The translations under genes were made by a program, and so were the position numbers. From NCBI RefSeq assembly GCF_041886205.1, contig NZ_CP169029.1: 64,000 nt of DNA; one strand, written 5' to 3'. Each line of letters opens with the position of its first letter. Position 1 is the first letter of the stretch. This document shows positions 12,274 to 47,946 of this stretch, piece after piece. The DNA comes from Escherichia coli (GTDB lineage: Bacteria > Pseudomonadota > Gammaproteobacteria > Enterobacterales > Enterobacteriaceae). The notes beneath the pieces were generated by a model, which did no database searches, was not told the origin of the DNA, and worked only from the letters and a program-made list of their open reading frames with translations.

Positions 12274-12276
12274 TGA

Positions 12277-21382: not shown

Positions 21383-21396
21383 AGGAGTATTACTTG

Positions 21397-22296: not shown

Positions 22297-22394
22297 CTTA
22301 GTTCCCGGTAGCGTATAAAAAATATCTCAATATAAAAAGTAGACGCAGAATAAAAACTGAACGTATAATAATGCTACGCTATAGGGCGGTAAGG

Positions 22395-22434: not shown

Positions 22435-22465
22435 GTTTTCATGAATGATCTTCGGAAGGATGTGA

Positions 22466-24791: not shown

Positions 24792-24848
24792 GGCCCCATT
24801 TCTTAATCAACTGATATACTATAAAAATCAACTCCAATTCCGGTACAT

Positions 24849-27225: not shown

Positions 27226-27330
27226 CATCCTCATGGTGCCTTGGTTATCTCTCACCGAGGGAATATCAACGTCACTCGGTAACGTTAACTTAAGCTCAAC
27301 GGCTGTCTGGATATAGTGGTTCAAGGGCAC

Positions 27331-27487
27331 CTAAGGGCCTTATTTACGGTGTTTTCGCTGATTGGTTTACGCGGGTCATGTGCTCCCGTAAAGACCAGAC
27401 CATTTTCAACTGCCCATGTCTGAAGTTTTATCAGTATGGCTACAGCCTGTTTGCTGAGTGGCACAAGATGTGGTGTTCGCATCTTAT
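27331..27487 (-). pseudogene. Internal fragment of a P4-type integrase gene
   Basis: ~155 bp at ~93% identity to 43341-43497 within the intact integrase, same orientation. Confidence 0.7.
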
Positions 27488-27692: not shown

Positions 27693-30600
27693 GTGAAGTA
27701 TCAGATAGTAGGTGGTGCTGGCCTGCACCGCAGCGAAACCAAAACAGTTGATATGATGGTTAAGCAGTTACCAGATAGTTGGTTTGGCTATGCTGGCTTA
27801 GTTGTTACTGATAGCCAAGGGTCGATGGAAATCGATATGCTAATTATTACTGCTGACCGTCTGCTATTAGTCGAGCTTAAAGAGTGGAATGGTAACATCA
27901 CATTTGAAGGGGGGAAGTGGCTGCAAAATGGTAAGTCACGAGGCAAAAGTCCCTATCAGATCAAGCGTGAGCATGCACTGCGACTAAAAGATTTGTTGCA
28001 GGAAGAGTTATCTCGTAAGCTGGGTTACTTTTTGCATGTTGAGGCTCATGTAGTGCTGTGTGGCACAGCTGGTCCTGAAAACTTGCCATTAAGTGAGAGG
28101 CGCTATGTTCATACCCGTGATGAATTCTTGACTATAGGTAACCCAAAAAATTACGAAAAGCTGGTGCAACACACTAACTTTTTTCATCTTTTTGAAGGGG
28201 GAAAGCCTCGACCAAATTCTGATGAGGCATTACCTATAATTAAGTCCTTCTTTGAAGGACCAAAAGTCAGGCCTTTGCCACTAAAAGAAAGCGGTTATCT
28301 TGCGAACGATAAGCCATTCTTTAGTCACCCTCACATGGTCTACAACGAATTCAGGGCTACCCACAAAGACAATAGTCAACACAGAGGTCTGCTACGGCAG
28401 TGGAACTTTGATGCCTTGGGTGTAGCAAACGCAATGCAAACATTGTGGGCTGAGATAGCTCTGCGTGAGACTCGAGTCGGTCGCCTAGTTCGTCATGGCA
28501 GCGCAACTATGCAGGATTATATGTTGCGTGCTGTAAGGGAACTATCCGAGGAGGATATAACTGATGATGCCCGTGAGCTGTATGAGTTACGCCGTAGTTT
28601 TAGCCGATTAGATGAGATTCTAGATAGCGAAGCTGACGGATGGAGTAAATCTGAGCGTATTGATCGCGTTCGTGCATTATTAGCTCCATTCTCGGAATTA
28701 CATAGCTTGGGTATCAGTCATTGTGATATTGACCCGCACAATCTATGGTACGCAGGGGATCAGAAGAGCATTGTCGTTACTGGCTTTGGCGCAGCCTCAC
28801 TGGAGGGACATAATAGCCTAGAGTCATTGCGTCCGATATTGCAAAGTGCTCCATATATTTTGCCCGAAGATGCTTTTGAAGAAGCAGTTGAGCCCTATCG
28901 CCTAGATGTATTCATGTTGGCTGTAATTGCTTATCGTATTTGTTTTGCAGGTGAATCATTACTGACTCCTGGACAGATGCCTGAATGGAGAGCTCCATTA
29001 ACTGATCCTTTTAGCGGTATTCTAAATAGCTGGTTTGAGCAAGCTCTTAACCTTGAGCCAAGTAAACGCTTTCCACGTGCGGACATAATGCTCAATGAGT
29101 TTAATGCAGCTACTAAGGAACATAGCCAAGAATTTGATGAAGCTAACCAGATTTATCAAGAATTAAAGCAAAACAAATTCTTTCGCGAAGGGATGAACAG
29201 CGTTGGTGTGTTAATTGAGTTTCCTCCACTTCCTGAACAGTTGTCTATGGTTTACTCTGCTCTTGCTGCTATTGCTACGACTGGCAGCATCAGTTATCAC
29301 TGTGAACAAGGTGGGAAAGCTCTGCAGGTAAAATTGTGGGATGGTGTTATTTTGACCCCTCAACAACCTGGTGTTAACCGCCGTATCCACGCTTTTAAGC
29401 AACGGATCGATAAGCTTACGCATATAAATCTGCCAACTCCTAAGGTGCAGTCCTATGGACTATTAGGACAAGGCGGCTTGTATGTAGTGAGCGAGTATGT
29501 GGATGGCCTACCGTGGTCACAGTTTATTGCTGAGAACGTGTTAGTACAATCCCAACGTTTTACAATTGCGGAAAAGTTGATCAACACCATTCATGCTTTT
29601 CATGAAAAGCAGTTACCTCATGGAGATCTTTGCCCAGAGAAACTGCTGGTACAAGTCGGGGAGCAGACAGTAATTACTCTGATTGGATTGCTTGAATTCA
29701 GTGATGAATTAACTGCAGATAATCGCTACCAGCCAGAGAATCCCGAAAGTACTGATGCTTTTGGGCGAGATTGCTTTGCAGTATATCGTATGGTGGAGGA
29801 GCTATTTAGTGAAGATATGCCAGTACTGGTGCAGGCTGAGCTAGAACGCGCAAAACAAACCGTTGACGGTATACCTATCGCGCTCGATCCTTTGCTGCAG
29901 TCAATTCGAGCACCGGAACAAGCTGAGATTAATCAAGTTGTGGCGTCTGAGTCACAGGATAAGGTAATTCCTGTTTGCTGGGGCACAGATGATTGGCCGC
30001 AAGAAGTGAAGCTTCTAGAACAAAATGATGGGATCTATTATTTTCAATGTAACTGGTCATCGAACCCACGCTTTGCGCATGAATTGCGTTGTTACATCAC
30101 TGGCCTAGGAGAGCGGCTATTGATAGACTTAGATCCTGATAATCGCACTATTAATAGAATAGTGTATGAAAAAGGATTATCGATCGAAGAAAGTATAAAG
30201 GCTGGTAAATATTCCCAGGCTAAAATTAATACTCAACTTTCATTACAACGTGGCTCACTTAATCAGCGTAATACTTTTATTGAACTACTGTTTAACCTCG
30301 AGCCAGTAATTGATGCCATCATTGAGCGAGCTAATCCTAATCAAGAGATGGATGAAGATGACTTCGATAGTAGTGAGTCAAGCCCAATTGAGTTATGGCA
30401 GGCATTATCTGATACAGAAGTAGACCTACGAGATATAGTCAACATCGACTCTACTGACTTTCAGGAATCACCGAGTGGTTGCTTACTCTACCCATATACT
30501 ACGGAATCCGGTGCTGACCTCAGCTTTGAACTTGATGATAAGATCATTGTTTATATTAAAGATAAGCGTGAATCAGTGCAATTAGGGGAATTGCAGCTAA

Positions 30601-32651
30601 GTGAGACTACGCCGAGTCTATTGGCTATTCGCTTTGATTTTGATGCTGCTCGTAAGCGAATTAGTAGCGGCAGCCAGCTACAATTGGAATCGATCCGTGA
30701 CAAATCATCAAGAGAGTTGCGTCAAAGAGCCCTTCAACGGGTAATTGAAAACAAAGCAGAGATCCAGCATCTGCCACAGTATTTTGATTACCACCAGAAA
30801 CCCTGCATGCAGCAAATGCAACCGCGGCCATCCGCGGAGACATTACGCGCACTTTATGATCAGCCTGGACAACGTTTTAATGAACAGCAGCTAATGGCAT
30901 TTCAACAGTTGGTCGAGTTTGGACCAGTTGGAGTTCTGCAGGGACCACCTGGAACAGGTAAAACAACATTTATTTCAAAATTTATTCACTATCTGTATCA
31001 ACATTGCGGTGTGAATAACATTCTTTTGGTCGGGCAATCCCATGCCTCTGTTGATAATGTAGCCATCAAGGCTCGAGAGCTCTGCCATACGAAAGGAATG
31101 GAACTGGATACAGTACGTATTGGTAATGAACTTATGATTGATGAGGGTATGCTAAGTGTTGCAACTAAAGCTCTTCAGCGACAGATTCAGCATAAATTTC
31201 ACCGTGAATATGATCTGCGAGTTAGCTCCCTAGGAAAGCGCCTAGGGATGGCCCCATTATTAGTCCAACAGTTATGTCAGTTACATCGTACGCTGAATCC
31301 CTTGATGGTGACATATGGCCAATATAGCCGTGAGCTGGATAAAGTAGAACAAATAAAGAGTAGTAGTATTAGTCATCAAGAGCGACTGGCTGAATTATTA
31401 GAACAAAGCAATCAGCTTAAACTGCGAACACAAGAAATTATTAACTCAATATTCGATGACAGCTTGCTGAAAACTCTTGTCTATGATGAAACCTTGATAA
31501 GACAGTTGGCTGAGCAAGTTGCCATACAATACAATTATAACAATCCAGAGAACCTTGAACGTTTTATGCAGCTATTGGAAATGAGCCAAGAGTGGATGGA
31601 TGTATTACGCGGCGGCGAGGCTGGATTTGATCGATTTATGTTCAAAAGTAAGCGATTGGTTTGTGGAACTCTTGTTGGTGTTGGGAATCGTCGACTAGAA
31701 CTAGCTGAGTCCAGCTTTGATTGGGTAATAGTTGATGAGGCTGGCCGAGCACAAGCTGCTGAATTGATGGTAGCGCTGCAATCAGGCAAGCGGGTGCTGT
31801 TGGTAGGGGATCATAAACAATTGCCACCATTCTATCATCAACAGCATCTTAAGTTAGCCTCTAAGAAATTAGAACTCGGGAAAGGGATCTTTTATGAGTC
31901 TGATTTTGAACGTGCTTTTAAAGCAACAGGCGGCGTAACACTCGATACTCAATATCGAATGGTAGAACCAATTGGCGAGTTAGTATCGGAGTGCTTTTAC
32001 GCTCAAGATATCGGTAAACTGCATTCATCGAGGAAAGTCTCGCCAGATTGGTATTCCAAGTTACCAATCCCTTGGAACAAAACTGTTACTTGGATCGATA
32101 GTTCGAGCCCTAATGAAGCAGGTGCAGAAGAACATAAGGGTAATGGTCGTTACTATAATCAACGAGAAGTCCGGCTACTGCTAGAGGCTTTGCAGTCATT
32201 GTCGAGTGATGGCTGCATTGCACAGCTTGAGCAAACTATTACCACAGAACAGCCATATCCTATTGGTATAATCACAATGTATCGTCAGCAAAAAGAGGAA
32301 ATTGACAATGCTATCAGTCGGGCTGAATGGGCTGCATCGTTACGTGGTTTGATCAAGATCGATACCGTTGATTCATATCAGGGCCATGAAAACAAGATAA
32401 TTATCCTCAGTCTGGTTCGCGATAATCCCAACAAACTACAAGGTTTCCTGCGCGACGCGCCGCGAATAAACGTTGCTATTTCGCGAGCTCAAGAAAGGTT
32501 ATTGATTCTGGGAGCAAGGCGTATGTGGTCAAAGACCAATAATGATTCAGCACTTGGAAACGTTCATGAATTTATTAGTAAACAGGTTGCAGTAGATGAA
32601 CCCAACTACCAAATCCTGTGTGGTCAAAGTCTGCTTGGAGATAACAACTAA
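27693..32651 (+). CDS. 1652-aa multidomain protein: N-terminal NERD-like domain, two protein-kinase-like domains, C-terminal SF1 (Upf1/DNA2-like) helicase
   Basis: GTG start with AGGAG RBS; NERD-like EIDMLIITADRLLLVELKEW; kinase-like HCDIDPHN...TGFG...DVFMLAVIAY and HGDLCPEKLLV...DAFGRDCFAVY; helicase Walker [10 protein letters not shown], Walker B VIVDEAG, motifs LVGDHKQLPP, DSYQGHE, VAISRAQERLLILG. Confidence 0.8.
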   Translation: MKYQIVGGAGLHRSETKTVDMMVKQLPDSWFGYAGLVVTDSQGSMEIDMLIITADRLLLVELKEWNGNITFEGGKWLQNGKSRGKSPYQIKREHALRLKDLLQEELSRKLGYFLHVEAHVVLCGTAGPENLPLSERRYVHTRDEFLTIGNPKNYEKLVQHTNFFHLFEGGKPRPNSDEALPIIKSFFEGPKVRPLPLKESGYLANDKPFFSHPHMVYNEFRATHKDNSQHRGLLRQWNFDALGVANAMQTLWAEIALRETRVGRLVRHGSATMQDYMLRAVRELSEEDITDDARELYELRRSFSRLDEILDSEADGWSKSERIDRVRALLAPFSELHSLGISHCDIDPHNLWYAGDQKSIVVTGFGAASLEGHNSLESLRPILQSAPYILPEDAFEEAVEPYRLDVFMLAVIAYRICFAGESLLTPGQMPEWRAPLTDPFSGILNSWFEQALNLEPSKRFPRADIMLNEFNAATKEHSQEFDEANQIYQELKQNKFFREGMNSVGVLIEFPPLPEQLSMVYSALAAIATTGSISYHCEQGGKALQVKLWDGVILTPQQPGVNRRIHAFKQRIDKLTHINLPTPKVQSYGLLGQGGLYVVSEYVDGLPWSQFIAENVLVQSQRFTIAEKLINTIHAFHEKQLPHGDLCPEKLLVQVGEQTVITLIGLLEFSDELTADNRYQPENPESTDAFGRDCFAVYRMVEELFSEDMPVLVQAELERAKQTVDGIPIALDPLLQSIRAPEQAEINQVVASESQDKVIPVCWGTDDWPQEVKLLEQNDGIYYFQCNWSSNPRFAHELRCYITGLGERLLIDLDPDNRTINRIVYEKGLSIEESIKAGKYSQAKINTQLSLQRGSLNQRNTFIELLFNLEPVIDAIIERANPNQEMDEDDFDSSESSPIELWQALSDTEVDLRDIVNIDSTDFQESPSGCLLYPYTTESGADLSFELDDKIIVYIKDKRESVQLGELQLSETTPSLLAIRFDFDAARKRISSGSQLQLESIRDKSSRELRQRALQRVIENKAEIQHLPQYFDYHQKPCMQQMQPRPSAETLRALYDQPGQRFNEQQLMAFQQLVEFGPVGVLQGPPGTGKTTFISKFIHYLYQHCGVNNILLVGQSHASVDNVAIKARELCHTKGMELDTVRIGNELMIDEGMLSVATKALQRQIQHKFHREYDLRVSSLGKRLGMAPLLVQQLCQLHRTLNPLMVTYGQYSRELDKVEQIKSSSISHQERLAELLEQSNQLKLRTQEIINSIFDDSLLKTLVYDETLIRQLAEQVAIQYNYNNPENLERFMQLLEMSQEWMDVLRGGEAGFDRFMFKSKRLVCGTLVGVGNRRLELAESSFDWVIVDEAGRAQAAELMVALQSGKRVLLVGDHKQLPPFYHQQHLKLASKKLELGKGIFYESDFERAFKATGGVTLDTQYRMVEPIGELVSECFYAQDIGKLHSSRKVSPDWYSKLPIPWNKTVTWIDSSSPNEAGAEEHKGNGRYYNQREVRLLLEALQSLSSDGCIAQLEQTITTEQPYPIGIITMYRQQKEEIDNAISRAEWAASLRGLIKIDTVDSYQGHENKIIILSLVRDNPNKLQGFLRDAPRINVAISRAQERLLILGARRMWSKTNNDSALGNVHEFISKQVAVDEPNYQILCGQSLLGDNN

Positions 32652-34198
32652 TGTCAGAACCACGTCTGGGTAATCTGATTACCGTTTTACTACCTGCGCG
32701 TAGTTACAAGATCAACTGCGCTTTGACCACTGAAAAACTGATGCCTGGAATTGAACAGTTTGCATGTCGCTTGCTGCTGATTTTTGATCAACTCTATCCC
32801 AGCGAGTTACAGAATTACTTTGGTCTAACTGATCGTGAGCGAGAGGTATTGCTTGATGGGTTGCTGGCTAACAGACTGATCAACATTAATCCTGATGGGC
32901 ATATTGAGGCTAGCTCATTCCTACGTAAGCATGCAGCTAATAATGGTGGGAAGCCAAGTTTAGTTAAATATCAAGAATGTACGGAGGAAGTTGCATTCGA
33001 TCTACTAACTCTTTCGATATGTAAACCGCAACCAAATCGTCGTTTTACTTCTGGACTGCCAGAGCTATTGCCGCGGCATCAGATCGGGGGAGATGCTGCT
33101 GCGGTAACAGAGGCTTTTAGTTCCCAGTTTAGGCACCATCTTTTGCTCAGCCGCAACAGCGAGTATGAGCGTCAACGGACTAAATTATATAAGATAATGG
33201 GCTGTAGTTCGCATGAGATGGTGCAGCTCCCAATAGAGATAGAGGTTAGCTACGGTGTTTCTGCTGGGAGCATTGAGCCGCAGAAATTTACTCGTTCCTA
33301 TGAATATTTAGGTAACACCCGGCTGCCGCTTTCAAACGAGCTGGAAGCTCATATCGCAGATTTTTTGGGAGAACATAAACTAGATGAATTCGGTATCGAC
33401 TGTGAAGATTTCTGTAAACTAGCAAATGATAAAGTGTTGTTACAATTTGCTAATGGTTATAAGTTCAACTATTCCGGCTGGATAGAGGCTCGTGAACAAC
33501 GTAAAACTGGCTACGGTACTTCATTGACTACCGGCATGTTAGGGGCTGTTTATTTGCCGCACAATTCTAAGCTGTTCATTAGTATGTTGCATAATGCATT
33601 ACGTGATTATATAGGTAAAACAGCTCCAAAAGCGCTGTGGTATAGCAGTAAAGTACCACTGTGGGGAGCTAATGGTAGTCAACTTTCGCGTTTTACTCGC
33701 GCTCTAGGCGATATACTTGGCAATTATGCCGATGATAAGATTGCTCGCATTTCGCTTTTACACTCAAGTGCAGATGAAGGTGAAAAACGTCAAGAGCGTA
33801 AGCGGCACTTAGGTCGTTTTCCTACCGGTATTGGCCTTACTTCAGAGGCTAAATTTGATCGTTTGGAGATCCTCTTAATTCCTGATGTGATTGCTTTGGT
33901 GCAATACCACGGTCAACCTAATTCTGATAGTGCATTAACCCTGCCGATTGGTTATATAACTGTTGAGCCAGAGCGTTTAGAATTACTTAAAAAACTAATG
34001 ATTAAGCGAACTGAAGGGGCTGTTGCAACCATTACTTGGTCTGAATCAAAATTTGAAAATTTAGCTTCGCTATTACCTGTTGAGTTTCTGATTAAACTGA
34101 ATAAGAAAAGCGGTGAAGATGTGGATGCTGCAATAAAAAAAATGCAGATCTATAACCGTGCTGAAACCGCACGGGCAATTTTATCGCTACGCAAGTAG
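32651..34198 (+). CDS. 515-aa protein of unknown function, translationally coupled to the upstream gene
   Basis: Start ATG overlaps the upstream TAA (TAATG); no recognisable motifs. Confidence 0.6.
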   Translation: MSEPRLGNLITVLLPARSYKINCALTTEKLMPGIEQFACRLLLIFDQLYPSELQNYFGLTDREREVLLDGLLANRLININPDGHIEASSFLRKHAANNGGKPSLVKYQECTEEVAFDLLTLSICKPQPNRRFTSGLPELLPRHQIGGDAAAVTEAFSSQFRHHLLLSRNSEYERQRTKLYKIMGCSSHEMVQLPIEIEVSYGVSAGSIEPQKFTRSYEYLGNTRLPLSNELEAHIADFLGEHKLDEFGIDCEDFCKLANDKVLLQFANGYKFNYSGWIEAREQRKTGYGTSLTTGMLGAVYLPHNSKLFISMLHNALRDYIGKTAPKALWYSSKVPLWGANGSQLSRFTRALGDILGNYADDKIARISLLHSSADEGEKRQERKRHLGRFPTGIGLTSEAKFDRLEILLIPDVIALVQYHGQPNSDSALTLPIGYITVEPERLELLKKLMIKRTEGAVATITWSESKFENLASLLPVEFLIKLNKKSGEDVDAAIKKMQIYNRAETARAILSLRK

Positions 34199-36345: not shown

Positions 36346-36584
36346 GGATGCTCTTGTAATCCCAACCTCTCGTGCTTTCTGAGCATAACACATCCATGTT
36401 GCTGCGATTATCTCTTAAACCCGTCCTTACCATTTTTATTGATACGATAAGGAACCTTCATCATACATGATCGATTTTGTCGATCGATTCGATCGAATTT
36501 TCTCTTTTTACCCTGTCTTTTACATGGTTTTAAAATAAGCACCCCATTTATTGTTCGGGGAAAGTGATAGCAGAGGTAACTGAA

Positions 36585-37313
36585 ATGAAAAAGATTATTG
36601 CGGTTTCAGCACTTGCTGTGGCAGGCATGTTTTCAGCCCAGACCCTGGCTGATGAGAGCAAAACAGGCTTTTATATGACCGGTAAGGCGGGAACTTCCGT
36701 TTTATCTCTTTCCAACCAGCGTTTTGTCGAAGGTGAAGGAGAGTGGGCGGACAGATACAAAGGTGACGATGACCATGATACGGTATTCAGTGGCGGTATT
36801 GCGGCCGGTTATGATTTTTATCCGCAGTTCAGTATTCCGGTTCGTACAGAACTGGAGTTTTACGCTCGTGGAAATGCTGACACGAAATATAATCTTTATA
36901 AAGACGACTGGTCGCGTGGTGACCTGAAGAACGAGGTGTCAGTCAACACTCTGATGCTGAATGCGTACTATGACTTCCGGAATGACAGCTCATTCACACC
37001 ATGGGTATCTGCAGGGATTGGCTACGCCAGAATTCACCAGAAAACAACCGGTATCAGTACCTGGGATTACGGGTATGGATACAGTGGTCGTGAATCGTTG
37101 TCACGTTCAGGCTCTGCTGACAACTTCGCATGGAGCCTTGGCGCGGGTGTCCGCTATGACGTCACCCCGGATATCGCTCTGGACCTCAGCTATCGCTATC
37201 TTGATGCGGGTGACAGCAGTGTGAGTTACAAGGGCGAGTGGGGCGATAAATATAAATCAGAGGTTGATGTTAAAAGTCATGACATCCTGCTTGGTGTGAC
37301 TTATAACTTCTGA
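36585..37313 (+). CDS. Outer-membrane beta-barrel protein (signal peptide, C-terminal ...GVTYNF)
   Basis: N-terminal signal peptide MKKIIAVSALAVAGMFSAQTLA; alternating amphipathic strands; terminal aromatic residue. Confidence 0.6.
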   Translation: MKKIIAVSALAVAGMFSAQTLADESKTGFYMTGKAGTSVLSLSNQRFVEGEGEWADRYKGDDDHDTVFSGGIAAGYDFYPQFSIPVRTELEFYARGNADTKYNLYKDDWSRGDLKNEVSVNTLMLNAYYDFRNDSSFTPWVSAGIGYARIHQKTTGISTWDYGYGYSGRESLSRSGSADNFAWSLGAGVRYDVTPDIALDLSYRYLDAGDSSVSYKGEWGDKYKSEVDVKSHDILLGVTYNF

Positions 37314-37488: not shown

Positions 37489-38988
37489 ATGAGTATCATA
37501 AAACTATTTTTTCCGGACAATACATCCCGAATTTTATTGTTTTTATTCTTTTTTGTTGTTTCTGTCATAACCACAATTGCATGCGGATACACTGAGAAGA
37601 ATACCACCGGGAATGTGTTGCTGCTGTTCTTTCTTCTGCTTCTTGCACACAGAAATACCCTCACATCCATTACAGCGCTGTTATTTCTGTTCTGTTGTGC
37701 ACTGTATGCGCCTGCCGGTATGACGTACGGTAAAATCAACAACAGTTTTATTGTCGCGTTGTTGCAGACCACGGCTGATGAGGCAGCGGAGTTTACCGGG
37801 ATGATTCCTGTTTATCATTTTCTGGTCAGTGCCGCGATTCTGGTATTCATGGTGATTTTCTGGCGAACACACCACCGCGGTCACCGTAACTGGCTGGCAC
37901 TGCTGCTATTCGTATTATGCTCTGTAAACAGCTGGCCGTTGCGGATGGTTAAAGGAACCGTTGTGGGGACAACTGACACATTGCGTGAAATGCAGCGTTA
38001 TAAACAACTGAGTCAGCACGGGGCTGACAGCTGGAAAATCCTGCCGGGTGTACCGTTGTATGACACGATTGTTATTGTTACTGGTGAGAGTGTGCGCAGG
38101 GATTATATGTCGGTATATGGCTATCCCGTGCCAACCACACCGTGGCTGAATACTGCTCCCGGTTTATTTATTGACGGCTATACATCGGCAGCAGCCAGTA
38201 CCGTACCTTCCCTGAGCCGGACACTGATTTATGACTATGAGCAGAACCCTGATTCCGGCAACAACGTGGTGGCGCTGGCAGCAAAATCAGGATACAGCAC
38301 ATGGTGGATATCCAATCAGGGAAAACTGGGAGAGCATGACACACGCATCTCTGTTATTGCTTCTGATGCGGAGCATACCGTTTTCCTCAAGAAAGGCAGC
38401 TTCGCTTCCCGTAAAACGGATGATATGTTGTTGTTACAGGAAACAGAACGTGCGCTGGCGGATACATCCTCTCCGAAGGTGATTTTCCTGCACATGATTG
38501 GCTCTCATCCGAATCCGTGTGACCGACTTAACTCCTGGCCGAATCATTACCTGGAGCAGTATCCCCGAAAGATTGCCTGTTACCTCGCCAGCATCAGTAA
38601 ACTGGATAACTTTCTCGGTCAGCTTGATGGTATCCTTCGCCGGCATTCCCGTCATTTCGCCATGCTTTACTTTTCTGACCATGGACTGTCGGTCAGCGAC
38701 AGCGCTAATCCTGTTCATCATGATGGTCATGTGCAGGGAGGCTACAGCGTTCCCCTGATTATTACCGCCAGTGACATCACGTCTCATCAGTCCGTCAGCA
38801 GAAAAATCAGTGCCCGTCATTTCGCAGGTATTTTTCAGTGGCTGACCGGCATTCGTACTGAAAATATACCGCCATTCAATCCGCTGACAGACGAAGATAA
38901 TGAACCCGTTATGGTTTTTAACGGGGAGAGGAATGTACCGGCAGACAGTCTGAAACCGCAGCCTCTGATTCTTCCGGACAGAAGATAA
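37489..38988 (+). CDS. Phosphoethanolamine-transferase-family (sulfatase superfamily) membrane protein
   Basis: N-terminal TM helices; motif VIVTGESVRRDYMSVYGY...TSAAASTVPSLS typical of EptA/MCR-like enzymes. Confidence 0.65.
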   Translation: MSIIKLFFPDNTSRILLFLFFFVVSVITTIACGYTEKNTTGNVLLLFFLLLLAHRNTLTSITALLFLFCCALYAPAGMTYGKINNSFIVALLQTTADEAAEFTGMIPVYHFLVSAAILVFMVIFWRTHHRGHRNWLALLLFVLCSVNSWPLRMVKGTVVGTTDTLREMQRYKQLSQHGADSWKILPGVPLYDTIVIVTGESVRRDYMSVYGYPVPTTPWLNTAPGLFIDGYTSAAASTVPSLSRTLIYDYEQNPDSGNNVVALAAKSGYSTWWISNQGKLGEHDTRISVIASDAEHTVFLKKGSFASRKTDDMLLLQETERALADTSSPKVIFLHMIGSHPNPCDRLNSWPNHYLEQYPRKIACYLASISKLDNFLGQLDGILRRHSRHFAMLYFSDHGLSVSDSANPVHHDGHVQGGYSVPLIITASDITSHQSVSRKISARHFAGIFQWLTGIRTENIPPFNPLTDEDNEPVMVFNGERNVPADSLKPQPLILPDRR

Positions 38989-39096: not shown

Positions 39097-42000
39097 CTAA
39101 ACCTGACGCCTCTCAAGACTATTATAAATAGCCTCAATCTCACCCTTCAGGTTATCACCGCAATAAACCATTGAGGTATCGTATCGTTCATATCGCGCTT
39201 CCCGTGTCGCACTAAACCAGTTGAACGATCCCACGCACAGCAAACCATCATCACCAATAACAATTTTGCTATGAACACGGTTTACCAGCTTTGTAGCAAT
39301 ACCCAGCGCATTCAGTTTCTCCAGCGCCGCTTTAAAGTTTTGCTGCTTCTCTTTTCGCTTCTCAAAATCATTATGTTCAGTGTTGTAGCTTCTGTCAGTG
39401 ACTATCGTGACGTTAATTCCACGTGAACACGCCGCAATCATGGAATCAAGAAAACCTGTTTGCTCCAGCCTTTGCCAGGTCAGCCATGGAGAAACTATCG
39501 TGATGTGTTTACTGGTATTTTCAAATGTCTGATTCAGGAAATTATCATGTTGCTCCACACCATGAAGTGTGTAGATTTTGGTCCCGGAGGTTTTTAAATC
39601 CTTACGCTCTTTATAATCAAAAGAGAGCGCATTCTTCTCTGACTCAAAGAGGTATTTTGCCAGTAATCCCCGTGGAGATGAGGCTGGCTGGACCTCAAAC
39701 AGGTCCATATCGCCGAAGACCAGAAAACTGTCCTTCGCACGGGAGACTGCAACATTCAGCATGCTGTTATCGCTATCAATAAACCCGCCGTCTTCATGTT
39801 TTGAATAGACTGGCGAGAATATCACAATCGCTCTTTCCGCTCCCTGAAGAGAGTGCACGGTGCCCACTGTGAGCGACTTTTCATTCGAGCCTGTACTGAT
39901 ACCTTGTTTGCCCAGCGCCTGTTTGATAGTGGATACCTGAGCGCTAAAAGGCGTCACGATACCGACAACTTCATGAAGCGATTTACCGTAATGCGCTTCA
40001 ATATTTTGTTGGTTCTCTGCCAACCAGACCGCTATCGTTTCAGCCTCAAGCAAATTATATCGACTTCCACTACTTGCCAGCTCTCCTTTACCATCAATAT
40101 GGAGATACCCCATTGCGGGCATTAAATTGCTCTCTTCACGCCCTCTTTTAGGCAACAACTTACCGTGATAGCAGAGCGTATTACAGTATCCAATAATATT
40201 GTCGTAGCACCGGCGGTGTTCATATAGGGACATACCACGAGCCAGTTCGGGATCATATTGATAGCGCGAAGCAAACTGCGCTATTTTCATAACGCTGCCA
40301 GATGCGGCACTTTTACCAAGGTCTGCGATTGCCGTATATTTCTCGGTAATCTCTTCTTGCGTACTGCCAGACAGAATTTTTTCCGCCAGCATGTTACCGA
40401 CATCAATCGCAGGAGCAATACTCCATATTGGCGGGAGCTGCTCCGTATCGCCAATCACTAATGCCTTCTTAGCTAATGCAAACGAGGCAGCAGCCACTTC
40501 AGGAAGCACCTGCCCGGCTTCATCGACAATGAGTAAATCGGCAAAATCATACAAATAACTTTTCTCGAATTTACGCTGTCCTTTGTGCTCACTTATCTGC
40601 ATATTGCCGGGCAGCATATAGCATGTCATCACCACACATGGAGTGAGTTTCATTCGACGTTGCCAACGGGCAGTTACCCCTTTAGCGCCTTTTTTCTTCT
40701 TCTCTTCCTGCAGATCATCAATGCTGGCCATATCCATCAGCCAACGACCTTCCCAGTAGTGAGTCGTCAGTAAAAATGCAGGGAAGCGAATCTGCGTATC
40801 AGCCAGTTCATCGGCCTGTGAGAAGCTCAGTTCCTCGTCGCCCTCATACCCTAAATTAAGAGCCAGTCTCTGCCACTCCTGAACCGCCTGCTGTTCTTTA
40901 AGAATGATTTCATGGGCGGAATCAATCTGCTGCCGGTATGTTGTTTGCTCGCGCTCAGCGGAATTGAGCAGCCCATCAATATTACGTTCGATAGTTTCAG
41001 GATCAGACCACTGATTTCCTGCAATCAGCGCACCTAATTTATCTTCGAGAAACAGCTGTATTTGGTACTGTCGCTTACTGCGAACCACCGGGAGCCAGGA
41101 AAATAATGAATAGATCAGTGATTCACCGGCGCGATATTTTTTCCATTCCGTTTTAGCACTTTTCAGTAGAGTGATTTTTTGTTCTTGTCCGGAAAGTAAT
41201 TTATTTAAATTATCGAGATATTGCTCAATGTCGTTAGCAATAAGCTCACGCGCAGCCCGTACCTGGCTTAACGTTTGCCATGTTGCGTTCAGTCTTATCA
41301 GTTGCTCGGATTTTGCTGCCAACTGACCATGCAGGAGTTCAATGACCTTTTCAGGGGATGAACAATCTTTTTCAGGAAAGGCTGCCTTAGCCTTCTCCAG
41401 ATAAAACAGCAGTGCATCCTCTACATACTCTTTTGACTCAACCTGGTTGAAGAAATCTTCAGTTTGATATTTTTTGGCTGCCTCAGCTTTACGAGTGCTT
41501 GAGGGAAAATAAGCGCCGAAGCTTTTCAGCTCAGGTAACCATCGTCCGGCCATTGCACCAGTGCCCTGTGAAAAATCTTTCCCGAACGCTTCGATAATGT
41601 TCGTTACAGCCTGGTTGTTCGTTGAAGTCGCGATAATTACCGGAGGCTCAGATTTTTCGAGAGCCGCTCTGGCCCACTGCGTGGCGATGATAGAAAGCAC
41701 CAGCGTGGTTTTTCCGGTTCCCGGAGGTCCATTAACAGCAAGGATATCGCCATGTCTTGCATCCAGAAAATGGCTTAAGGCATCGCGCTGAGCCTTTGCC
41801 AGCGGAAACTTATCTCCGGAGTGTCCAAGCCTGTCGCTGAATTTTGCGCCTGGGGCCAGCAAAGACTCTGCAGCATGAACCTCTCGCGAGGCGAAGCGAT
41901 TGAAGAGCGGCACAACCTTCTTGCAAACAAGCAGGTGATCATAAAGAGAAAGGATATGGAAACAGGCACCGCCAGATTGCGCCGTTTTAACAATATAACC

Positions 42001-42612
42001 GTGCTCAGCGAGTTCATATTGCTCAGGATTTTTAATCCAGTCGCCGGCAACGTTCTTCAGCAGCCTCTCTGAATCATCCAGATATTGACGCCACTCCTGC
42101 TGCAAGGCTGCATATCGTGCTTCCCGTTCTTCATCCGTTTCGGCAGTCTTATCAATGCCGTCATCAAAGTTGATAGAGAACGAGGTATGGATTGTCTTGT
42201 ATTTGTCATACTGCCCAATCTCACCAATCGAAAATGCTCCTTTTGGCAAAGGTTCAAGCAGGTCTCTGGGAATGGAGGTCGCTGGCGTCGGATATAAAAA
42301 ACCCTCACGGCTTAGCAAGGCTGGCGTCACTATCGGGGTAACAATATCAGGCGCGCCTGCGGAACGGTCCTTACCATGCTGCAGTAACCGGAAATAAACT
42401 TTTGGGCGCAAGATGACATCGACCGTTTCGACATCGTCTTTTTCTCCCTTAAAAAATTTACTGACAATCGCTTCGTCAAGACGTCCCGCCGCTATCCCAT
42501 GCCAGTGAGTGAAATTTTTGGCGTCTTTCCGTTCAAAACTGCCCTTTCCTGACTCAGCATCCGCAAGCGAGTTGCGCCAGTATGAGGTAAACCCTAAAGC
42601 ATTTTCATCCAT
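39097..42612 (-). CDS. SF1 helicase fused to C-terminal PLD-family nuclease domain (Mokosh type II-like)
   Basis: 1171 aa; Walker [10 protein letters not shown], Walker B LIVDEAGQ, helicase motifs; C-terminal HxK-x4-D-x6-GSxN ([20 protein letters not shown]). Confidence 0.7.
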
Positions 42613-42665
42613 TACCAGTCCTGTGACTCAATGAAATCCATTGATTTATCGAATATAAAACCACC

Positions 42666-42689
42666 ATATGGACAACTATTGTCCATATT
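42666..42689. promoter_or_regulatory. Palindrome ATATGGACAA-CTAT-TTGTCCATAT upstream of the helicase-PLD gene
   Basis: 10-bp perfect arms, 4-bp spacer, ~55-75 bp upstream of the start at 42612. Confidence 0.4.
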
Positions 42690-43063
42690 GAAAAAATTGG
42701 ATGCAATGTTTTGTTTATAATTCGATATCAAATGTACTGGTTGTACAAGGTTCAGAACACAAGCACATTCAACAGTACGTCAGGACTATTGATTTCATAA
42801 CAGTGAATACATTTTTTACCGTTTATAATGACTGCCTGTGTTGGACAAGGATACCAGAACAGCCGAAAACACCGGGGGTTATTACCTGCTCTCATGGAAA
42901 CCAGATATTCCTGGTGCTAATCACAGTCATAAATAGCCTGAAGAACATGACGAAGGGACTTTAATGGACGCCGGAGTAACTTGCCAGAACATCAATCTTC
43001 GTCATCATTTACAAAGAAAAATAATCAGTTAAAGCAGTCCGGGCTGATTGCCCGGACTGCTTA

Positions 43064-44326
43064 CTATTTTAATGGATTGTTAATTTTTGCATATTCAAAC
43101 GGACTGATACCCTTCTCCCGGTTCGCATCCAGAAAATCGGCCCACCATTGCAACATCAGTCGCCGTTCTTCCAGATGTTCTGCTTTATGGATATACGCAG
43201 CACGTACACCATTACGCTCCTGATGGCTCATCTGACGTTCCACAGCATCGCGGGACCACAAACCTGATTCAATCAATGCACTGCACGCCATCGCCCGGAA
43301 TCCATGGCCACAGACATCCTGGGTTGTGTCATACCCCATCACCCTCAGGGCTTTATTTACAGTATTTTCACTGATTGGTTTACGCGGGTCATGTGCTCCC
43401 GTAAAGATCAGACCATTTTCACCAGCCCATGTCTGTAGTTCTGCCAGTATGGCTACAGCCTGTTTGCTGAGTGGCACAAGATGTGGTGTTCGCATCTTGG
43501 AGCCCCGGTGTGAGAATTTTACGCCAGGCAGAGGTTCGCGTTCGGCTGGAATAGTCCACATGGCATTGTCAATATCAATTTCAGACCAGCGGGCGTATCT
43601 GAGTTCACTGGAACGAATAAAAACCAGTAAATTCAGCATAACTGCCAGTCGGGTGACAGGCTGGCCTTTATAACCGTCAATACGCGACAGAAGTTCAGGC
43701 AGGCGTGAAAGATCCAGTGCAGGGCGATGCTGGCGTTTTACCGTGGTCAATGCACCAGCCATATCCAGAGCCGGGTTATATCTGATGATGCCAGACTGTA
43801 CGGCATAACGCATTACAGCAGATATTCTTTGCTGCAGACGACTGGCGATTTCATAAATTTGTTTAGCTTCTGCAGCACGAACAGGGATAAGCAGGTCCGG
43901 GGTACTGAGTGTTGTGATATCCCGGTTGCCGATAAAGGGGAAAACGTGTGTCTCGAGGCTTTTGAGTACTTTATCGCTGTGTGATTGTGCCCATTGTTTA
44001 TTACTGGCATGCCAGCGTCGTGCAATATGTTCAAAAGAGAGTTGTAAATCAGGGACTACTTTTTTAGCTCTTTTCAGTTCGCAAGGGTCAATCCCCTCCG
44101 AAATCAGTTTTCGGGCCTCATCCCGTTTTGTACGAGCTTCGGAGAGAGAAACTTCTGGATACACACCAAGTGCCAGAGTCTTCTCCTTACCCAGAATACG
44201 ATAACGGAGACGCCAGTAACGGGAACCATTAGGATGAACCAGTAGGAACATGCCAGCCCCGTCAGTGAGTTTATAAGCCTTGTCAGTGGGCTTTGCAGCC
44301 CGGATTTTTGCGTCAGTCAGTGCCAT
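43064..44326 (-). CDS. int: Tyrosine recombinase, P4-type integrase
   Basis: Starts MALTDAKIRAAKPTDKAYKLTDGAGMFLLV...; C-terminal catalytic region; adjacent to tRNA-Phe 3' end. Confidence 0.9.
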   Translation of the reverse strand: MALTDAKIRAAKPTDKAYKLTDGAGMFLLVHPNGSRYWRLRYRILGKEKTLALGVYPEVSLSEARTKRDEARKLISEGIDPCELKRAKKVVPDLQLSFEHIARRWHASNKQWAQSHSDKVLKSLETHVFPFIGNRDITTLSTPDLLIPVRAAEAKQIYEIASRLQQRISAVMRYAVQSGIIRYNPALDMAGALTTVKRQHRPALDLSRLPELLSRIDGYKGQPVTRLAVMLNLLVFIRSSELRYARWSEIDIDNAMWTIPAEREPLPGVKFSHRGSKMRTPHLVPLSKQAVAILAELQTWAGENGLIFTGAHDPRKPISENTVNKALRVMGYDTTQDVCGHGFRAMACSALIESGLWSRDAVERQMSHQERNGVRAAYIHKAEHLEERRLMLQWWADFLDANREKGISPFEYAKINNPLK

Positions 44327-44523: not shown

Positions 44524-44599
44524 TGGTGCCCGGACTCGGAATCGAACCAAGGACACGGGGATTTTCAATCCCCTGCTCTACCGACTGAGCTATCCGGGC
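44524..44599 (-). tRNA. pheV: tRNA-Phe (GAA)
   Basis: 76-nt match to the canonical E. coli tRNA-Phe including CCA end; location next to yqgA and speC. Confidence 0.95.
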
Positions 44600-44704: not shown

Positions 44705-45433
44705 TCAGGCAAACCAGGCGGTCCAGGCGGCGGAAATCGGCATTGCCAGAAGGAGTGCTGGAAGCATGTTGACCACCGGGAACATTTTAATGCCACAGAT
44801 GCGTAATCCGGTTGCCAGCAGCAATAAACCGCCTACGGCGCTGAAGTCTGCCATCATCGACGGTGTGGTCAGCGGTAATATCAGCGCGGCAGCCCACGCC
44901 AGCGTTAACTGGATGATCAGTAATGGTATACTAATTACCGACACCGCGATGCCCAACGAGCAGGCGAAGATCATTGCCGTAAAGAAATCAAGAAATGACT
45001 TGGCGATTAAAATACTCGGATCGCCGGTCATCCCTTCGTTCATCGCCCCGAAGATCCCGGTGCCGCTGGCGCAAAACAGGACAATAATCGCGACATAATT
45101 CTGAATAAAAGATTCATGCGCTGGCTTCTTACGTGAGTGACGAAACAGATTTTGTGCTTTGGTGACCGCGGTATTGACGCCTTTTTCCAGCAGACAAAAT
45201 TCGCCGATTAATGCTCCAAGTAAGGTTGCTAAAACCATCGCCGGAAGGTTGGCGCATTTCACCACCAGTAAAATACCAATCCCCAGCGATGCCAGACCAA
45301 AAATTGATGTCATGGAGACGCGGATACGTTCCGGTAAGCGTTGGCTAAGTAGTGCACCGAGCACGCCACCCAGTAATACTGCACTTGCGTTGATAAAAGG
45401 ACCGATGACCACAAAAGTTCCCGTTAGCTGCAT
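44705..45433 (-). CDS. yqgA: Inner-membrane protein YqgA (DUF554)
   Basis: Hydrophobic 242-aa ORF in the conserved position between pheV and speC. Confidence 0.85.
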
Positions 45434-45810
45434 TGTCTGATTTTCTTATTATGACCGTTTGGTGCCGTCGATGGCTTGTTTGTTCGCAAAGTCCTGGCTT
45501 GCACGCTCTGATGAAAGGTGCCATGATTGCGCGAATTTTCTCCTCTCTGTACGGAGTTTGCCCGATGCATGCCACCTCCTTACATTCTCTCGCTTATCGC
45601 CGTTTCGCGCGAAACTCTTCTCTTTTTATGCTACTGCTCATGCGGTGAAGTTAACGCACGCTCACTGCAGGACAACAGTAAAATCAGAGCGTTTCTGCTT
45701 TTACTGATGTCTGGCGGTCGGAGCTGGTGACCAGTTTGACCCATATCTCATGGGGCAGGGTTTTCCACCTTGTCCGGTATTCTTACTTCCCCGAAACGGG
45801 TTTTGCGCTT

Positions 45811-47946
45811 ATGAAATCAATGAATATTGCCGCCAGTAGTGAACTGGTATCCCGACTTTCTTCACATCGCCGCGTGGTGGCGTTGGGAGATACTGATTTT
45901 ACGGACGTCGCGGCAGTCGTCATTACCGCTGCGGATAGTCGCAGTGGCATTCTTACGTTGCTTAAGCGCACCGGTTTTCATCTACCGGTGTTTTTGTATT
46001 CCGAACATGCTGTTGAATTACCTGCGGGCGTTACGGCGGTAATCAATGGCAACGAGCAGCAGTGGCTGGAGCTGGAATCCGCAGCCTGTCAGTATGAAGA
46101 GAATTTACTGCCACCGTTTTATGACACGCTGACGCAGTACGTTGAGATGGGCAACAGCACCTTTGCTTGCCCTGGACATCAACATGGTGCGTTTTTTAAA
46201 AAGCATCCTGCCGGACGCCATTTTTACGATTTCTTTGGTGAGAACGTCTTTCGCGCCGATATGTGTAACGCTGACGTAAAATTGGGCGATCTGCTTATTC
46301 ATGAAGGATCGGCGAAAGATGCGCAGAAATTCGCAGCCAAAGTCTTTCATGCCGATAAAACCTATTTTGTGCTGAACGGCACATCGGCAGCGAATAAAGT
46401 GGTGACGAATGCGCTGTTAACGCGTGGCGATCTGGTGCTCTTCGACCGTAACAACCATAAGTCGAATCATCACGGCGCGCTGATTCAGGCGGGGGCGACG
46501 CCGGTCTATCTGGAAGCTTCACGCAACCCGTTTGGTTTCATTGGCGGTATTGATGCGCACTGTTTTAATGAAGAGTATCTGCGCCAGCAAATTCGCGACG
46601 TTGCGCCAGAAAAAGCTGAGTTGCCGCGCCCGTTTCGCCTGGCGATTATTCAGCTGGGAACCTATGACGGCACTGTCTATAACGCCCGTCAGGTGATCGA
46701 TACCGTTGGGCATCTGTGTGATTACATTCTGTTTGATTCCGCGTGGGTCGGTTATGAACAATTTATCCCGATGATGGCGGATAGCTCGCCGCTGCTGTTA
46801 GAACTTAACGAAAACGATCCGGGGATCTTTGTGACTCAGTCGGTGCACAAACAGCAGGCGGGATTCTCACAGACGTCGCAGATCCATAAAAAAGATAACC
46901 ATATCCGCGGACAGGCGCGTTTTTGCCCGCATAAGCGGTTGAATAACGCCTTTATGCTCCATGCTTCTACCAGCCCTTTCTATCCGCTGTTTGCTGCACT
47001 GGATGTTAACGCTAAAATTCATGAAGGAGAGAGTGGGCGTCGGCTGTGGGCTGAGTGCGTTGAGTTGGGTATTGAGTCGCGCAAGGCTATTCTTGCGCGC
47101 TGTAAGCTGTTCCGCCCGTTTATCCCGCCCGTTGTTGATGGCAAATTGTGGCAGGATTATCCGACATCTGTGTTAGCCAGCGACCGCCGTTTTTTCAGTT
47201 TTGAGCCGGGGGCGAAGTGGCACGGCTTTGAAGGATATGCCGCGGATCAGTATTTTGTTGATCCGTGCAAGCTGTTACTCACTACACCAGGTATCAATGC
47301 CGAAACTGGCGAATATAGCGACTTTGGCGTTCCGGCGACGATTCTGGCGCACTATCTGCGTGAGAACGGCATTGTGCCGGAGAAGTGCGATCTCAACTCC
47401 ATTCTGTTCTTATTAACTCCGGCGGAAAGCCACGAGAAGCTGGCACAACTGGTAGCGATGTTGGCGCAGTTTGAACAGCATATTGAGGATGACTCGCCGC
47501 TGGCTGAGGTGTTGCCGAGCGTTTATAACAAGTATCCGGTGCGCTATCGCGACTACACCCTGCGCCAGTTGTGTCAGGAGATGCACGATCTGTATGTCAG
47601 TTTCGACGTCAAAGACCTACAAAAAGCGATGTTCCGCCAGCAGAGTTTCCCGTCAGTGGTGATGAACCCCCAGGATGCGCATAGCGCTTATATTCGCGGT
47701 GACGTGGAGTTGGTGCGGATTCGTGATGCCGAAGGGCGAATTGCGGCAGAAGGGGCGTTGCCTTATCCACCTGGCGTGCTTTGCGTGGTACCCGGGGAAG
47801 TCTGGGGTGGGGCGGTTCAACGTTATTTCCTTGCACTGGAAGAAGGGGTGAATTTGTTGCCGGGATTTTCGCCGGAGCTGCAAGGTGTTTATAGCGAAAC
47901 CGATGCGGATGGCGTGAAGCGGTTGTACGGTTATGTGTTGAAGTAA
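45811..47946 (+). CDS. speC: Ornithine decarboxylase, constitutive
   Basis: 711 aa from MKSMNIAASS...; PLP-dependent decarboxylase motifs. Confidence 0.95.
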   Translation: MKSMNIAASSELVSRLSSHRRVVALGDTDFTDVAAVVITAADSRSGILTLLKRTGFHLPVFLYSEHAVELPAGVTAVINGNEQQWLELESAACQYEENLLPPFYDTLTQYVEMGNSTFACPGHQHGAFFKKHPAGRHFYDFFGENVFRADMCNADVKLGDLLIHEGSAKDAQKFAAKVFHADKTYFVLNGTSAANKVVTNALLTRGDLVLFDRNNHKSNHHGALIQAGATPVYLEASRNPFGFIGGIDAHCFNEEYLRQQIRDVAPEKAELPRPFRLAIIQLGTYDGTVYNARQVIDTVGHLCDYILFDSAWVGYEQFIPMMADSSPLLLELNENDPGIFVTQSVHKQQAGFSQTSQIHKKDNHIRGQARFCPHKRLNNAFMLHASTSPFYPLFAALDVNAKIHEGESGRRLWAECVELGIESRKAILARCKLFRPFIPPVVDGKLWQDYPTSVLASDRRFFSFEPGAKWHGFEGYAADQYFVDPCKLLLTTPGINAETGEYSDFGVPATILAHYLRENGIVPEKCDLNSILFLLTPAESHEKLAQLVAMLAQFEQHIEDDSPLAEVLPSVYNKYPVRYRDYTLRQLCQEMHDLYVSFDVKDLQKAMFRQQSFPSVVMNPQDAHSAYIRGDVELVRIRDAEGRIAAEGALPYPPGVLCVVPGEVWGGAVQRYFLALEEGVNLLPGFSPELQGVYSETDADGVKRLYGYVLK

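Follow-up and report, generated by a model that had tools for sequence, protein, structure and literature searches.

The first cargo gene of an Escherichia coli pheV island is assigned to mkoC, a single-gene Mokosh type II system

A stretch of 64,000 nucleotides of E. coli DNA (contig NZ_CP169029.1 of assembly GCF_041886205.1; the window) carries an island at tRNA-Phe (pheV) whose first cargo gene is, very probably, mkoC, which alone makes up a complete Mokosh type II system. The assignment was made from the sequence, and the anti-phage role ascribed to the gene comes from an allele about 97% identical. The finding is already known: naming and validation of the family date from 2022, its tested E. 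coli representative is about 97% identical and defence-annotation tools call mkoC automatically.

Gene identity

The open reading frame at 39097-42612 (minus strand), the sole gene of the system, is intact. It begins with ATG, preceded at 6 nt by an AGGA ribosome-binding site, and encodes a protein of 1171 aa and 131.4 kDa. The DNA is 100% identical to the gene for RefSeq WP_000344107.1 of E. coli ZYB39. RefSeq names this protein only generically, as 'AAA domain-containing protein' or 'DNA helicase', and the present assignment is of use as an annotation.

The PADLOC MkoC profile (PDLC03924) was matched end to end, with residues 1-1169 of the protein aligned to positions 1-1135 of the 1136 in the profile (1684 bits, E = 0). 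A full-length HMM match at E = 0 places the assignment far beyond chance. The initial annotation of this DNA had noted a resemblance to Mokosh type II and had named this search and an alignment with a characterised MkoC as checks; both bear the resemblance out.

Mokosh type II consists of a single gene and was shown to defend as SG150 of E. coli 5-366-08_S1_C1 (Millman et al. 2022, 10.1101/2022.05.11.491447). The verified construct, of 3903 bp, held mkoC only, with about 330 bp of upstream DNA and the native promoter, and Mokosh defence in vivo is lost when either site, ATP-binding or PLD, is mutated (10.1101/2022.05.11.491447). Both the window MkoC and that of SG150 are 1171 aa long, and 390 of the 399 published residues are identical (97.7%), a comparison limited to the part of SG150 that the supplement of 10.1101/2022.05.11.491447 shows. 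The full-length stand-in for SG150 was P0160, a database allele with its first 399 residues equal to those of SG150. Over the full length identity to P0160 was 97.4%, with 30 scattered substitutions, none of them in Walker A, Walker B or the HKD motif. The SG150 and window proteins agree in length, architecture and catalytic motifs and differ by about 30 substitutions, the demonstrated defence being that of the SG150 allele; for WP_000344107.1 defence is a prediction.

The sequence features expected of Mokosh type II were found: the full-length profile match, an intact Upf1-like (COG1112) helicase and a fused C-terminal HKD nuclease, in a single gene. In Mokosh type I a Ser/Thr kinase is carried on the helicase and a nuclease or HTH partner is encoded separately, whereas no kinase match was found in MkoC and its PLD domain is fused. 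Nor does the protein resemble the two-HKD phospholipase D and cardiolipin synthase enzymes, as the pattern H.K....D occurs once in the whole 1171-aa MkoC, in the C-terminal HKD motif, and the N-terminal domain is not PLD-like.

Domain architecture and conservation

Pfam analysis of MkoC gave AAA_11 (272-491 and 679-729), AAA_12 (776-969), PLDc_2 (1028-1138) and PLDc (1110-1133). A Upf1-like SF1B helicase core (aa ~268-985; 39658-41811, minus strand) was delimited from AAA_11 and AAA_12 together with AF2 and Foldseek, and a single-HKD nuclease domain of the PLD family at the C-terminus (aa ~1012-1171; 39100-39579, minus strand) from PLDc_2 and PLDc. The initial annotation had described an SF1 helicase core and a C-terminal HxK-x4-D-x6-GSxN motif in one 1171-aa protein, and re-translation from window coordinates located the motifs, all on the minus strand: Walker A (motif I, GPPGTGKT, aa 295-302) at 41707-41730, Walker B (motif II, DEAG, aa 697-700) at 40513-40524 and the HKD active-site motif (HSKIVIGD...GSFN, aa 1114-1131) at 39220-39273.

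The MkoC family comprises 1129 representative clusters at E <= 1e-30. Across 67 full-length homologues the helicase motifs and the catalytic residues vary little or not at all: the Walker A stretch G295-T303 is invariant or at least 90% conserved, and D697, E698, A699, G700 and Q701 are at least 90% conserved. Among homologues H1114, K1116, D1121, G1128, S1129 and N1131 are likewise invariant or at least 90% conserved. These residues could steer mutagenesis.

An AF2 model of full-length MkoC (pLDDT 93.2, pTM 0.88) was compared with solved structures using Foldseek. The best PDB matches of the helicase were senataxin (8ftm), Upf1 (2xzo/2wjv), IGHMBP2 (4b3g), Aquarius, Sen1, Dna2 and nsp13; on the model, the helicase is Upf1/senataxin-like, of type SF1B. 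A solved Mokosh structure was sought in PDB copies and none was found, the best matches being eukaryotic Upf1-like helicases. Upf1, senataxin/Sen1, IGHMBP2, MOV10L1 and Dna2 share with MkoC a two-RecA fold with RecA1 insertions (Foldseek E 1e-17 to 1e-12, TM on target 0.44-0.57), and Dna2, like MkoC, couples a nuclease to a Upf1-like motor. Identity to the eukaryotic Upf1-like helicases is, however, 12-14%, and MkoC differs from them in its nuclease, of the PLD rather than the PD-(D/E)XK type, in a unique N-terminal domain and in a helical insertion of far greater length.

Between motifs Ia and II, RecA1 is interrupted by a long insertion made up entirely of helices (aa ~394-654; 40651-41433, minus strand). 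In the AF2 model, DSSP placed these helices at 394-411, 420-458, 462-495, 508-530, 538-586 and 597-630, and sequence conservation is low (0.22-0.37) at aa 391-600. By analogy, the insertion appears comparable to the 1B/1C insertions of Upf1. The N-terminal domain (aa 1-262; 41827-42612, minus strand) is specific to the MkoC family, and no Pfam or solved-structure relative of these 262 aa was found; it is a candidate sensor or regulatory domain. Helicase-only relatives, which might or might not be parts of a split system, end at about residue 996; one example (P0036, L004) has an ART-PolyVal gene before it and an ISL3 transposase gene after it.

The best solved-structure matches of the PLD-domain profile were Nuc (1byr, E 1.2e-7), NucT (6ehi) and PLD6/Zucchini (4ggj), each of which has one HxK(x4)D(x6)GSxN motif per chain and the conserved core seen in MkoC. 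These three are stand-alone proteins of about 155-200 aa that build their active site as homodimers, whereas the PLD domain of MkoC is fused to a helicase in a protein reported to be monomeric. The initial annotation had counted the absence of the second half of a functional PLD active site as evidence against its own reading. That half is indeed absent from the polypeptide, but this is normal for the single-HKD branch (Nuc, NucT, Zucchini/PLD6), so the reading stands: the nuclease of MkoC is a single-HKD, Nuc/Zucchini-like half-site.

Genomic setting

The position of mkoC directly inboard of an intact integrase, as first annotated, was confirmed, with 451 bp between the integrase stop and the mkoC start. 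The integrase (43064-44326, minus strand) is a P4-type tyrosine integrase of 420 aa from the RefSeq ATG, and its start codon was verified. It scores 250 bits against NF007246, under the curated cut-off of 434, and RefSeq names its homologue 'tyrosine-type recombinase/integrase'. The integration site of the island is a tRNA-Phe (GAA) gene found by ARAGORN at 44524-44599 (minus strand). The yqgA and speC genes beyond it identify it as pheV: yqgA/speC-like ORFs at 44705-47946 agree with the pheV context of MS7163. No second copy of the tRNA-Phe 3' end was found in the window, so that either the island runs past the left edge or the att site has decayed.

The intergenic region upstream of mkoC (42613-43063, minus strand) probably holds the gene's own promoter. 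It includes a perfect 23-bp palindrome (42666-42688), and a hairpin at 43032-43062 ends the integrase transcript. In MS7163 and CFT073 this intergenic DNA shows 99% conservation; it is the same as that of SG150 to about -230 and then diverges. Downstream the neighbouring gene, for a phosphoethanolamine transferase, is convergent, so mkoC has no operon partner.

Among 5426 complete E. coli genomes mkoC is present in 839 and absent from 85%. In pheV and pheU islands it invariably follows the integrase as the first cargo gene. The GC content of the island is 0.46-0.47, against 0.50-0.53 in the flanking core. A phage-borne mkoC was considered and ruled out, as only fragments were found, on short unannotated 'phage' contigs.

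This setting bears on whether the protein could be a housekeeping or repair SF1 helicase-nuclease, similar to Dna2 or RecD2, that merely looks like Mokosh. The generic RefSeq names and weak matches to RecD, RecD2 and Dna2 would fit such an enzyme. Every NCBIfam match, however, is far under its curated cut-off, and the gene is accessory and lies in an integrase-bounded island of distinct GC content. MkoC finds its best homologues, over its full length, in a defence family rather than among non-defence helicases, and an allele protects against phage (10.1101/2022.05.11.491447). A repair enzyme is effectively refuted by these observations.

The window also contains a Mokosh type I system (27693-34198), 5 kb from mkoC, and a type III CBASS. 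One pheV island stacks Mokosh II, Mokosh I and CBASS. The Mokosh I locus occurs in 69 genomes and mkoC in 839, which indicates that the two are independent. Mokosh type I shares its Upf1-like helicase motifs with MkoC, BLASTP matches being found around Walker A, motif II and RecA2; MkoC also matches the MkoA profiles (129 and 114 bits) in the RecA2 region only (aa 692-994). In contrast to MkoC, Mokosh type I is made of two genes (the kinase-helicase MkoA and MkoB), with N-terminal kinase domains and without the N-terminal domain of MkoC; a common N-terminal domain in MkoC and the co-resident MkoA was ruled out (hhalign probability 0.1%). The window MkoB lacks an HKD motif and any Pfam domain and does not resemble the PLD domain of MkoC. 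The verified SEC470 system is similar in this respect, its MkoB bearing only the annotation 'HTH'. A relationship between the MkoC PLD domain and the window MkoB was likewise ruled out (hhalign probability 0.1%, MkoB having no Pfam domain).

Proposed mechanism

A recent preprint describes the biochemistry of EcMokosh II (EcMkoC), a monomer of 132 kDa in the model and about 138 kDa as measured (2025 preprint, 10.1101/2025.07.10.664194). This fits the 131.4 kDa computed for MkoC, and by mass EcMokosh II may be the SG150 protein. EcMokosh II defends only against the ssDNA phage SECphi17 in a panel of 11 phages; it cleaves only ssDNA substrates, from a panel without RNA, and appears to nick plasmid DNA, the mobility of this substrate being reduced (10.1101/2025.07.10.664194). 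Walker A and Walker B mutations leave its cleavage in vitro unaffected (10.1101/2025.07.10.664194).

From these data and the domain architecture a mechanism can be proposed. MkoC would be expressed from a promoter of its own, as a monomer of 131 kDa, and its Upf1-like SF1B motor would load on single-stranded nucleic acid exposed in infection, with phage ssDNA genomes or replication intermediates as the best-supported substrate. The motor would then translocate with ATP, presumably 5'->3', and the Nuc/Zucchini-like PLD domain would cut the strand via a phosphohistidine intermediate at H1114. As each polypeptide has one HKD half-site, catalysis should need two PLD domains, and these may come together most simply as two MkoC molecules on one substrate. 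Purified EcMkoC is monomeric yet active on ssDNA, which leaves dimerisation a conjecture, and the single-HKD site may work with a partner other than a second PLD domain. Protein with a dead ATPase retains its ssDNA cleavage in vitro, yet in vivo the ATPase mutants no longer defend, a discrepancy in the link between motor and nuclease. Substrate sensing or autoinhibition may fall to the N-terminal domain and the long helical insertion, a role that for the N-terminal domain is conjectural.

The same Mokosh type II protein could have a different physiological target, namely phage RNA or RNA/DNA hybrids, in a Upf1- or piRNA-like surveillance in which transcripts would be unwound by the helicase and cut by the Zucchini-like PLD, with ssDNA cleavage as a side activity. 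The nearest matches of the helicase core are RNA helicases (Upf1, senataxin, IGHMBP2 and Aquarius), and the PLD domain resembles PLD6/Zucchini, an ssRNA nuclease of the piRNA pathway. RNA or RNA/DNA hybrid intermediates were hypothesised as the Mokosh target by Millman et al. (10.1101/2022.05.11.491447), Cury et al. tie Mokosh to MOV10L1 and PLD6 (10.1101/2022.12.12.520048), and the in vitro substrates included no RNA (10.1101/2025.07.10.664194). The sole direct biochemistry, however, is ssDNA cleavage, together with protection against an ssDNA phage (10.1101/2025.07.10.664194). Nuc and NucT are DNA nucleases. Upf1-like SF1B enzymes (Upf1, IGHMBP2, Dna2) act on ssDNA too. On balance an RNA target seems rather unlikely, and ssDNA is the preferred substrate.

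The N-terminal domain and the 260-residue helical insertion might form a switch that keeps the monomeric half-site PLD off until two MkoC molecules meet on phage or plasmid ssDNA. This is a speculative proposal. Were it true, MkoC would be a substrate-assembled nuclease against ssDNA-entering elements generally (microviruses, filamentous phages, conjugative DNA), and its fixed first-cargo position in pheV and pheU islands would also be explained.

That position would be explained as well if the main role of mkoC were not phage defence at all, but exclusion of other ssDNA-entering elements (conjugative plasmids, filamentous phages, competing islands) or maintenance of the island. The invariable place after the integrase and the presence of the gene in 839 of 5426 genomes are in keeping with such a role, as is the in vitro specificity for ssDNA, conjugative DNA entering in single-stranded form. 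So is the narrow spectrum, one ssDNA phage of the 11 in the panel (10.1101/2025.07.10.664194). Plasmid or conjugation data were sought in support, but none were found, and mkoC lies in an island densely stocked with defence systems (CBASS and Mokosh I). A place beside the integrase is typical of island defence cargo. A main role outside phage defence is therefore considered improbable. A general anti-conjugation role is further argued against by the occurrence of homologues on conjugative plasmids: 712 plasmid records have any tblastn match to MkoC, most of these matches being partial, and 516 of the 712 are conjugative.

Identification of the gene

The mkoC gene (39097..42612, minus strand) is an uninterrupted reading frame of 1171 codons with an ATG start and an AGGA ribosome-binding site 6 nt 5' of it. 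The initial annotation had described a helicase fused to a phospholipase D (PLD)-family nuclease, resembling the single-gene anti-phage system Mokosh type II and lying beside an island integrase. All of the features it described (reading frame, helicase core, HKD-type motif and integrase) were located at the coordinates given. A motif scan of MkoC, followed by re-translation from window coordinates, placed the Walker A motif GPPGTGKT at residues 295-302 (nt 41707-41730), the Walker B motif DEAG at residues 697-700 (nt 40513-40524) and a single HKD motif, with exactly the reported pattern HxK-x4-D-x6-GSxN, at residues 1114-1131 (nt 39220-39273), all on the minus strand. The Pfam domains AAA_11, AAA_12, PLDc_2 and PLDc followed in the expected order, and the computed mass was 131.4 kDa.

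The protein matched the PADLOC-DB model for MkoC (Mokosh type II) from end to end (1684 bits, E = 0), residues 1-1169 being aligned with profile positions 1-1135 of 1136. The MkoA, MkoB and DrmC profiles of the same database matched only partially, over the shared helicase or PLD modules, and all NCBIfam matches (IGHMBP2-type helicase, PLuB, ProA, Hhe, RecD/RecD2) were far under their curated cut-offs.

Comparison was made with SG150, the verified type II system from E. coli 5-366-08_S1_C1, a construct of 3903 bp with one gene encoding an MkoC of 1171 aa (Millman et al., who defined Mokosh; 10.1101/2022.05.11.491447, file 11 of the supplement). Over the 399 printed residues 9 differences were found (97.7% identity), and the upstream DNA of the construct could be aligned with the window from about -230 to the ATG. 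Between the window protein and a full-length database allele whose first 399 residues equal those of SG150 (P0160) there are 30 substitutions in 1171 residues (97.4% identity), all outside the Walker A, Walker B and HKD motifs. The full-length profile match and the roughly 97% identity to a verified allele both bear out the type II assignment; alignment with characterised MkoC-type proteins had been proposed as a check in the initial annotation. The gene is 100% identical in DNA to that encoding WP_000344107.1 of E. coli ZYB39, annotated as an 'AAA domain-containing protein', and the exact protein is recorded on 69 contigs. As every sequence-level hallmark of Mokosh type II is present (profile match, Upf1-like helicase with intact motifs, fused HKD nuclease, single gene) and defence has been demonstrated with an allele of about 97% identity, mkoC is, on sequence grounds, a correctly identified example of an already known system. 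The remaining interest lies in the mechanism of Mokosh rather than in this locus.

Protein anatomy and mechanism

Conservation was assessed by aligning 67 full-length homologues that share 29-51% identity with window MkoC. Invariant or nearly invariant were Q275, G295-T303, D697-Q701, R927 and other helicase motifs, H1022, P1042, D1073, H1114, K1116, D1121, G1128, S1129 and N1131 in the PLD domain, and Y11, D18, R116, L119, P121, D136 and Y224 at the N-terminus. AlphaFold2 gave a confident model from this alignment (pLDDT 93.2, pTM 0.88). A Foldseek search of a PDB copy, which contained no Mokosh structure, put the motor among Upf1-like SF1B helicases, with senataxin (8ftm), Upf1 (2xzo/2wjv), IGHMBP2 (4b3g), Aquarius, Sen1, Dna2 and coronavirus nsp13 as relatives. 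The sequence is least conserved in an insertion of about 260 residues (aa 394-654) between motifs Ia and II, which is all-helical in the model.

The best profile matches of the C-terminal domain were Nuc (1byr, E 1.2e-7), NucT and PLD6/Zucchini, single-HKD nucleases in which two chains form one active site. No second HKD motif was found in a scan of all 1171 residues of MkoC. Lack of the second PLD half-site, which the initial annotation had named as grounds for rejecting its reading, is real, but it leaves the Mokosh call standing since a single HKD is the norm for the nuclease branch and the MkoC family.

The published phenotype data concern an allele nearly identical (~97%) to window MkoC. 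A single gene under its native promoter is enough to protect E. coli, and defence requires both an intact ATP-binding site and an intact PLD active site, since mutating either one abolishes it (10.1101/2022.05.11.491447). The purified E. coli type II protein of a 2025 preprint, EcMokosh II, was a monomer of ~132-138 kDa that protected against one of the 11 phages in the panel, the ssDNA phage SECphi17; it cleaved ssDNA substrates only, lowered plasmid mobility in a manner consistent with nicking, and its in vitro cleavage was unaffected by Walker A/B mutations (10.1101/2025.07.10.664194). MkoC might also act against other ssDNA-entering elements, a possible candidate role.

The best model is that MkoC acts as a surveillance helicase-nuclease, in which single-stranded nucleic acid of the phage would be engaged by the SF1B motor and cut by the Nuc-like PLD domain. 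In the cell, ATP hydrolysis would serve to find or process the target rather than the cleavage chemistry. As each chain carries half a PLD site, two PLD domains would have to pair, probably when two MkoC molecules meet on one substrate, although purified EcMokosh II is reported to be a monomer; the N-terminal domain and the helical insertion may regulate this pairing. The main rival reading is that the true target is RNA or R-loops, as proposed by Millman et al. (10.1101/2022.05.11.491447). The resemblance of MkoC to Upf1 and Zucchini suggests the same, and the substrate panel in which only ssDNA was cleaved held no RNA (10.1101/2025.07.10.664194).

Genomic setting and distribution

An intact P4-type integrase gene (43064..44326, minus strand; NF007246, 250 bits, under the curated cut-off of 434 for that model) adjoins mkoC, as had been reported, with 451 bp between its stop and the mkoC start. 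A tRNA-Phe gene (44524..44599) lies upstream on the same strand. The island is flanked by yqgA and speC, and the insertion site is thus pheV. A search of the window for another copy of the 3' end of tRNA-Phe found none, and the island's far end was therefore not located. Between integrase and mkoC, a hairpin followed by T-rich sequence (43032-43062) is a predicted terminator of the integrase transcript. A perfect 23-bp palindrome, ATATGGACAATAGTTGTCCATAT, unique in the window, lies at 42666-42688, about 55 nt upstream of the start codon; MS7163 and CFT073 retain its core TGGACA-N5-TGTCCA, as does the SG150 construct to a lesser degree. The palindrome may serve as an operator or belong to the promoter.

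Downstream, a CptA/EptA-like phosphoethanolamine transferase gene (37489-38988; well under MCR cut-offs) is convergent, leaving mkoC without an operon partner. Beyond it, and like it placed between the island's two Mokosh systems, is a gene encoding an outer-membrane invasin/adhesin of Tia/Hek-like type (36564-37313). Both genes neighbour mkoC in other strains too, and one or other is IS-interrupted in ZYB39 and MS7163.

Of 5426 complete E. coli genomes, 839 carry mkoC at ≥80% coverage; all of these copies are chromosomal, and most show 95-99% identity. In the examples examined, each in a tRNA-Phe island, mkoC comes first after the integrase. The island lies at pheU in ZYB39 and CFT073 and at pheV in the uropathogen MS7163, where the intact gene stands at its head and precedes the pap operon. 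In CFT073 (L003, 7001-8749) an IS3-family element breaks the gene after nt 1749, so that this well-studied uropathogen has a pseudogene only. A housekeeping role in repair is effectively excluded by this accessory distribution and island location.

Beyond E. coli the family comprised 1129 representative clusters (50% identity) at E ≤ 1e-30, with full-length relatives on plasmids of Salmonella (91%), Arsenophonus (57%), and Pseudomonas, Vibrio and Agrobacterium (40-45%); nothing comparable was found in the phage collection. About ten representatives (P0029, P0036, P0038, P0042, P0047 and others), of 970-1030 aa, lack the PLD domain and stop at about query residue 996. In a Logan contig (SRR10769896; L004, 1612-8148) genes for an 899-aa unknown protein and an ART-PolyVal ADP-ribosyltransferase lie upstream of such a helicase-only gene on the same strand, and a 57-aa ORF and an ISL3 transposase follow it; the gene may have been truncated by the IS, or it may represent a variant that uses another effector.

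Other defence systems and mobile elements

A Mokosh type I pair (27693-34198, plus strand) also lies in this island, at a distance of 5 kb from mkoC. It consists of MkoA (27693-32651; 1652 aa with kinase domains and a helicase), which matched PDLC03921 over its full length at 1304 bits, and MkoB (32651-34198; 515 aa; PDLC03923, 207 bits). The window MkoB has neither an HKD motif nor a Pfam domain and does not resemble the PLD domain of MkoC; likewise, MkoB of the verified SEC470 Mokosh I is annotated only as 'HTH'. Only 69 of the 5426 complete E. coli genomes have this type I module. Between an IS3 remnant and mkoA lies a 156-nt integrase fragment (27330-27485), 92% identical to an internal stretch of the intact integrase gene (window positions 43343-43498) and in the same orientation. 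It looks like a remnant of a second Phe-tRNA island integrase, which suggests that two such islands were joined in tandem and that tandem accretion probably gave rise to the present island.

On its left side (1-19903) the island is a mobile-element patchwork. Transposases of IS66 (two copies), IS256, IS481 and IS21 are present there, together with a fragment of a group II intron RT/maturase (8482-9294) and an ORF of 1130 aa (14-3406) with no match in the NCBIfam search. At 19907-25451 is a type III CBASS with cyclase (22466-23410), HORMA (23407-23895), TRIP13 (23895-24791) and DEDDh exonuclease (24849-25451) genes, accompanied by a divergent WYL-domain regulator (21397-22296, minus strand) and a divergent TIR/'PN-superfamily' effector of 491 aa (19907-21382, minus strand).
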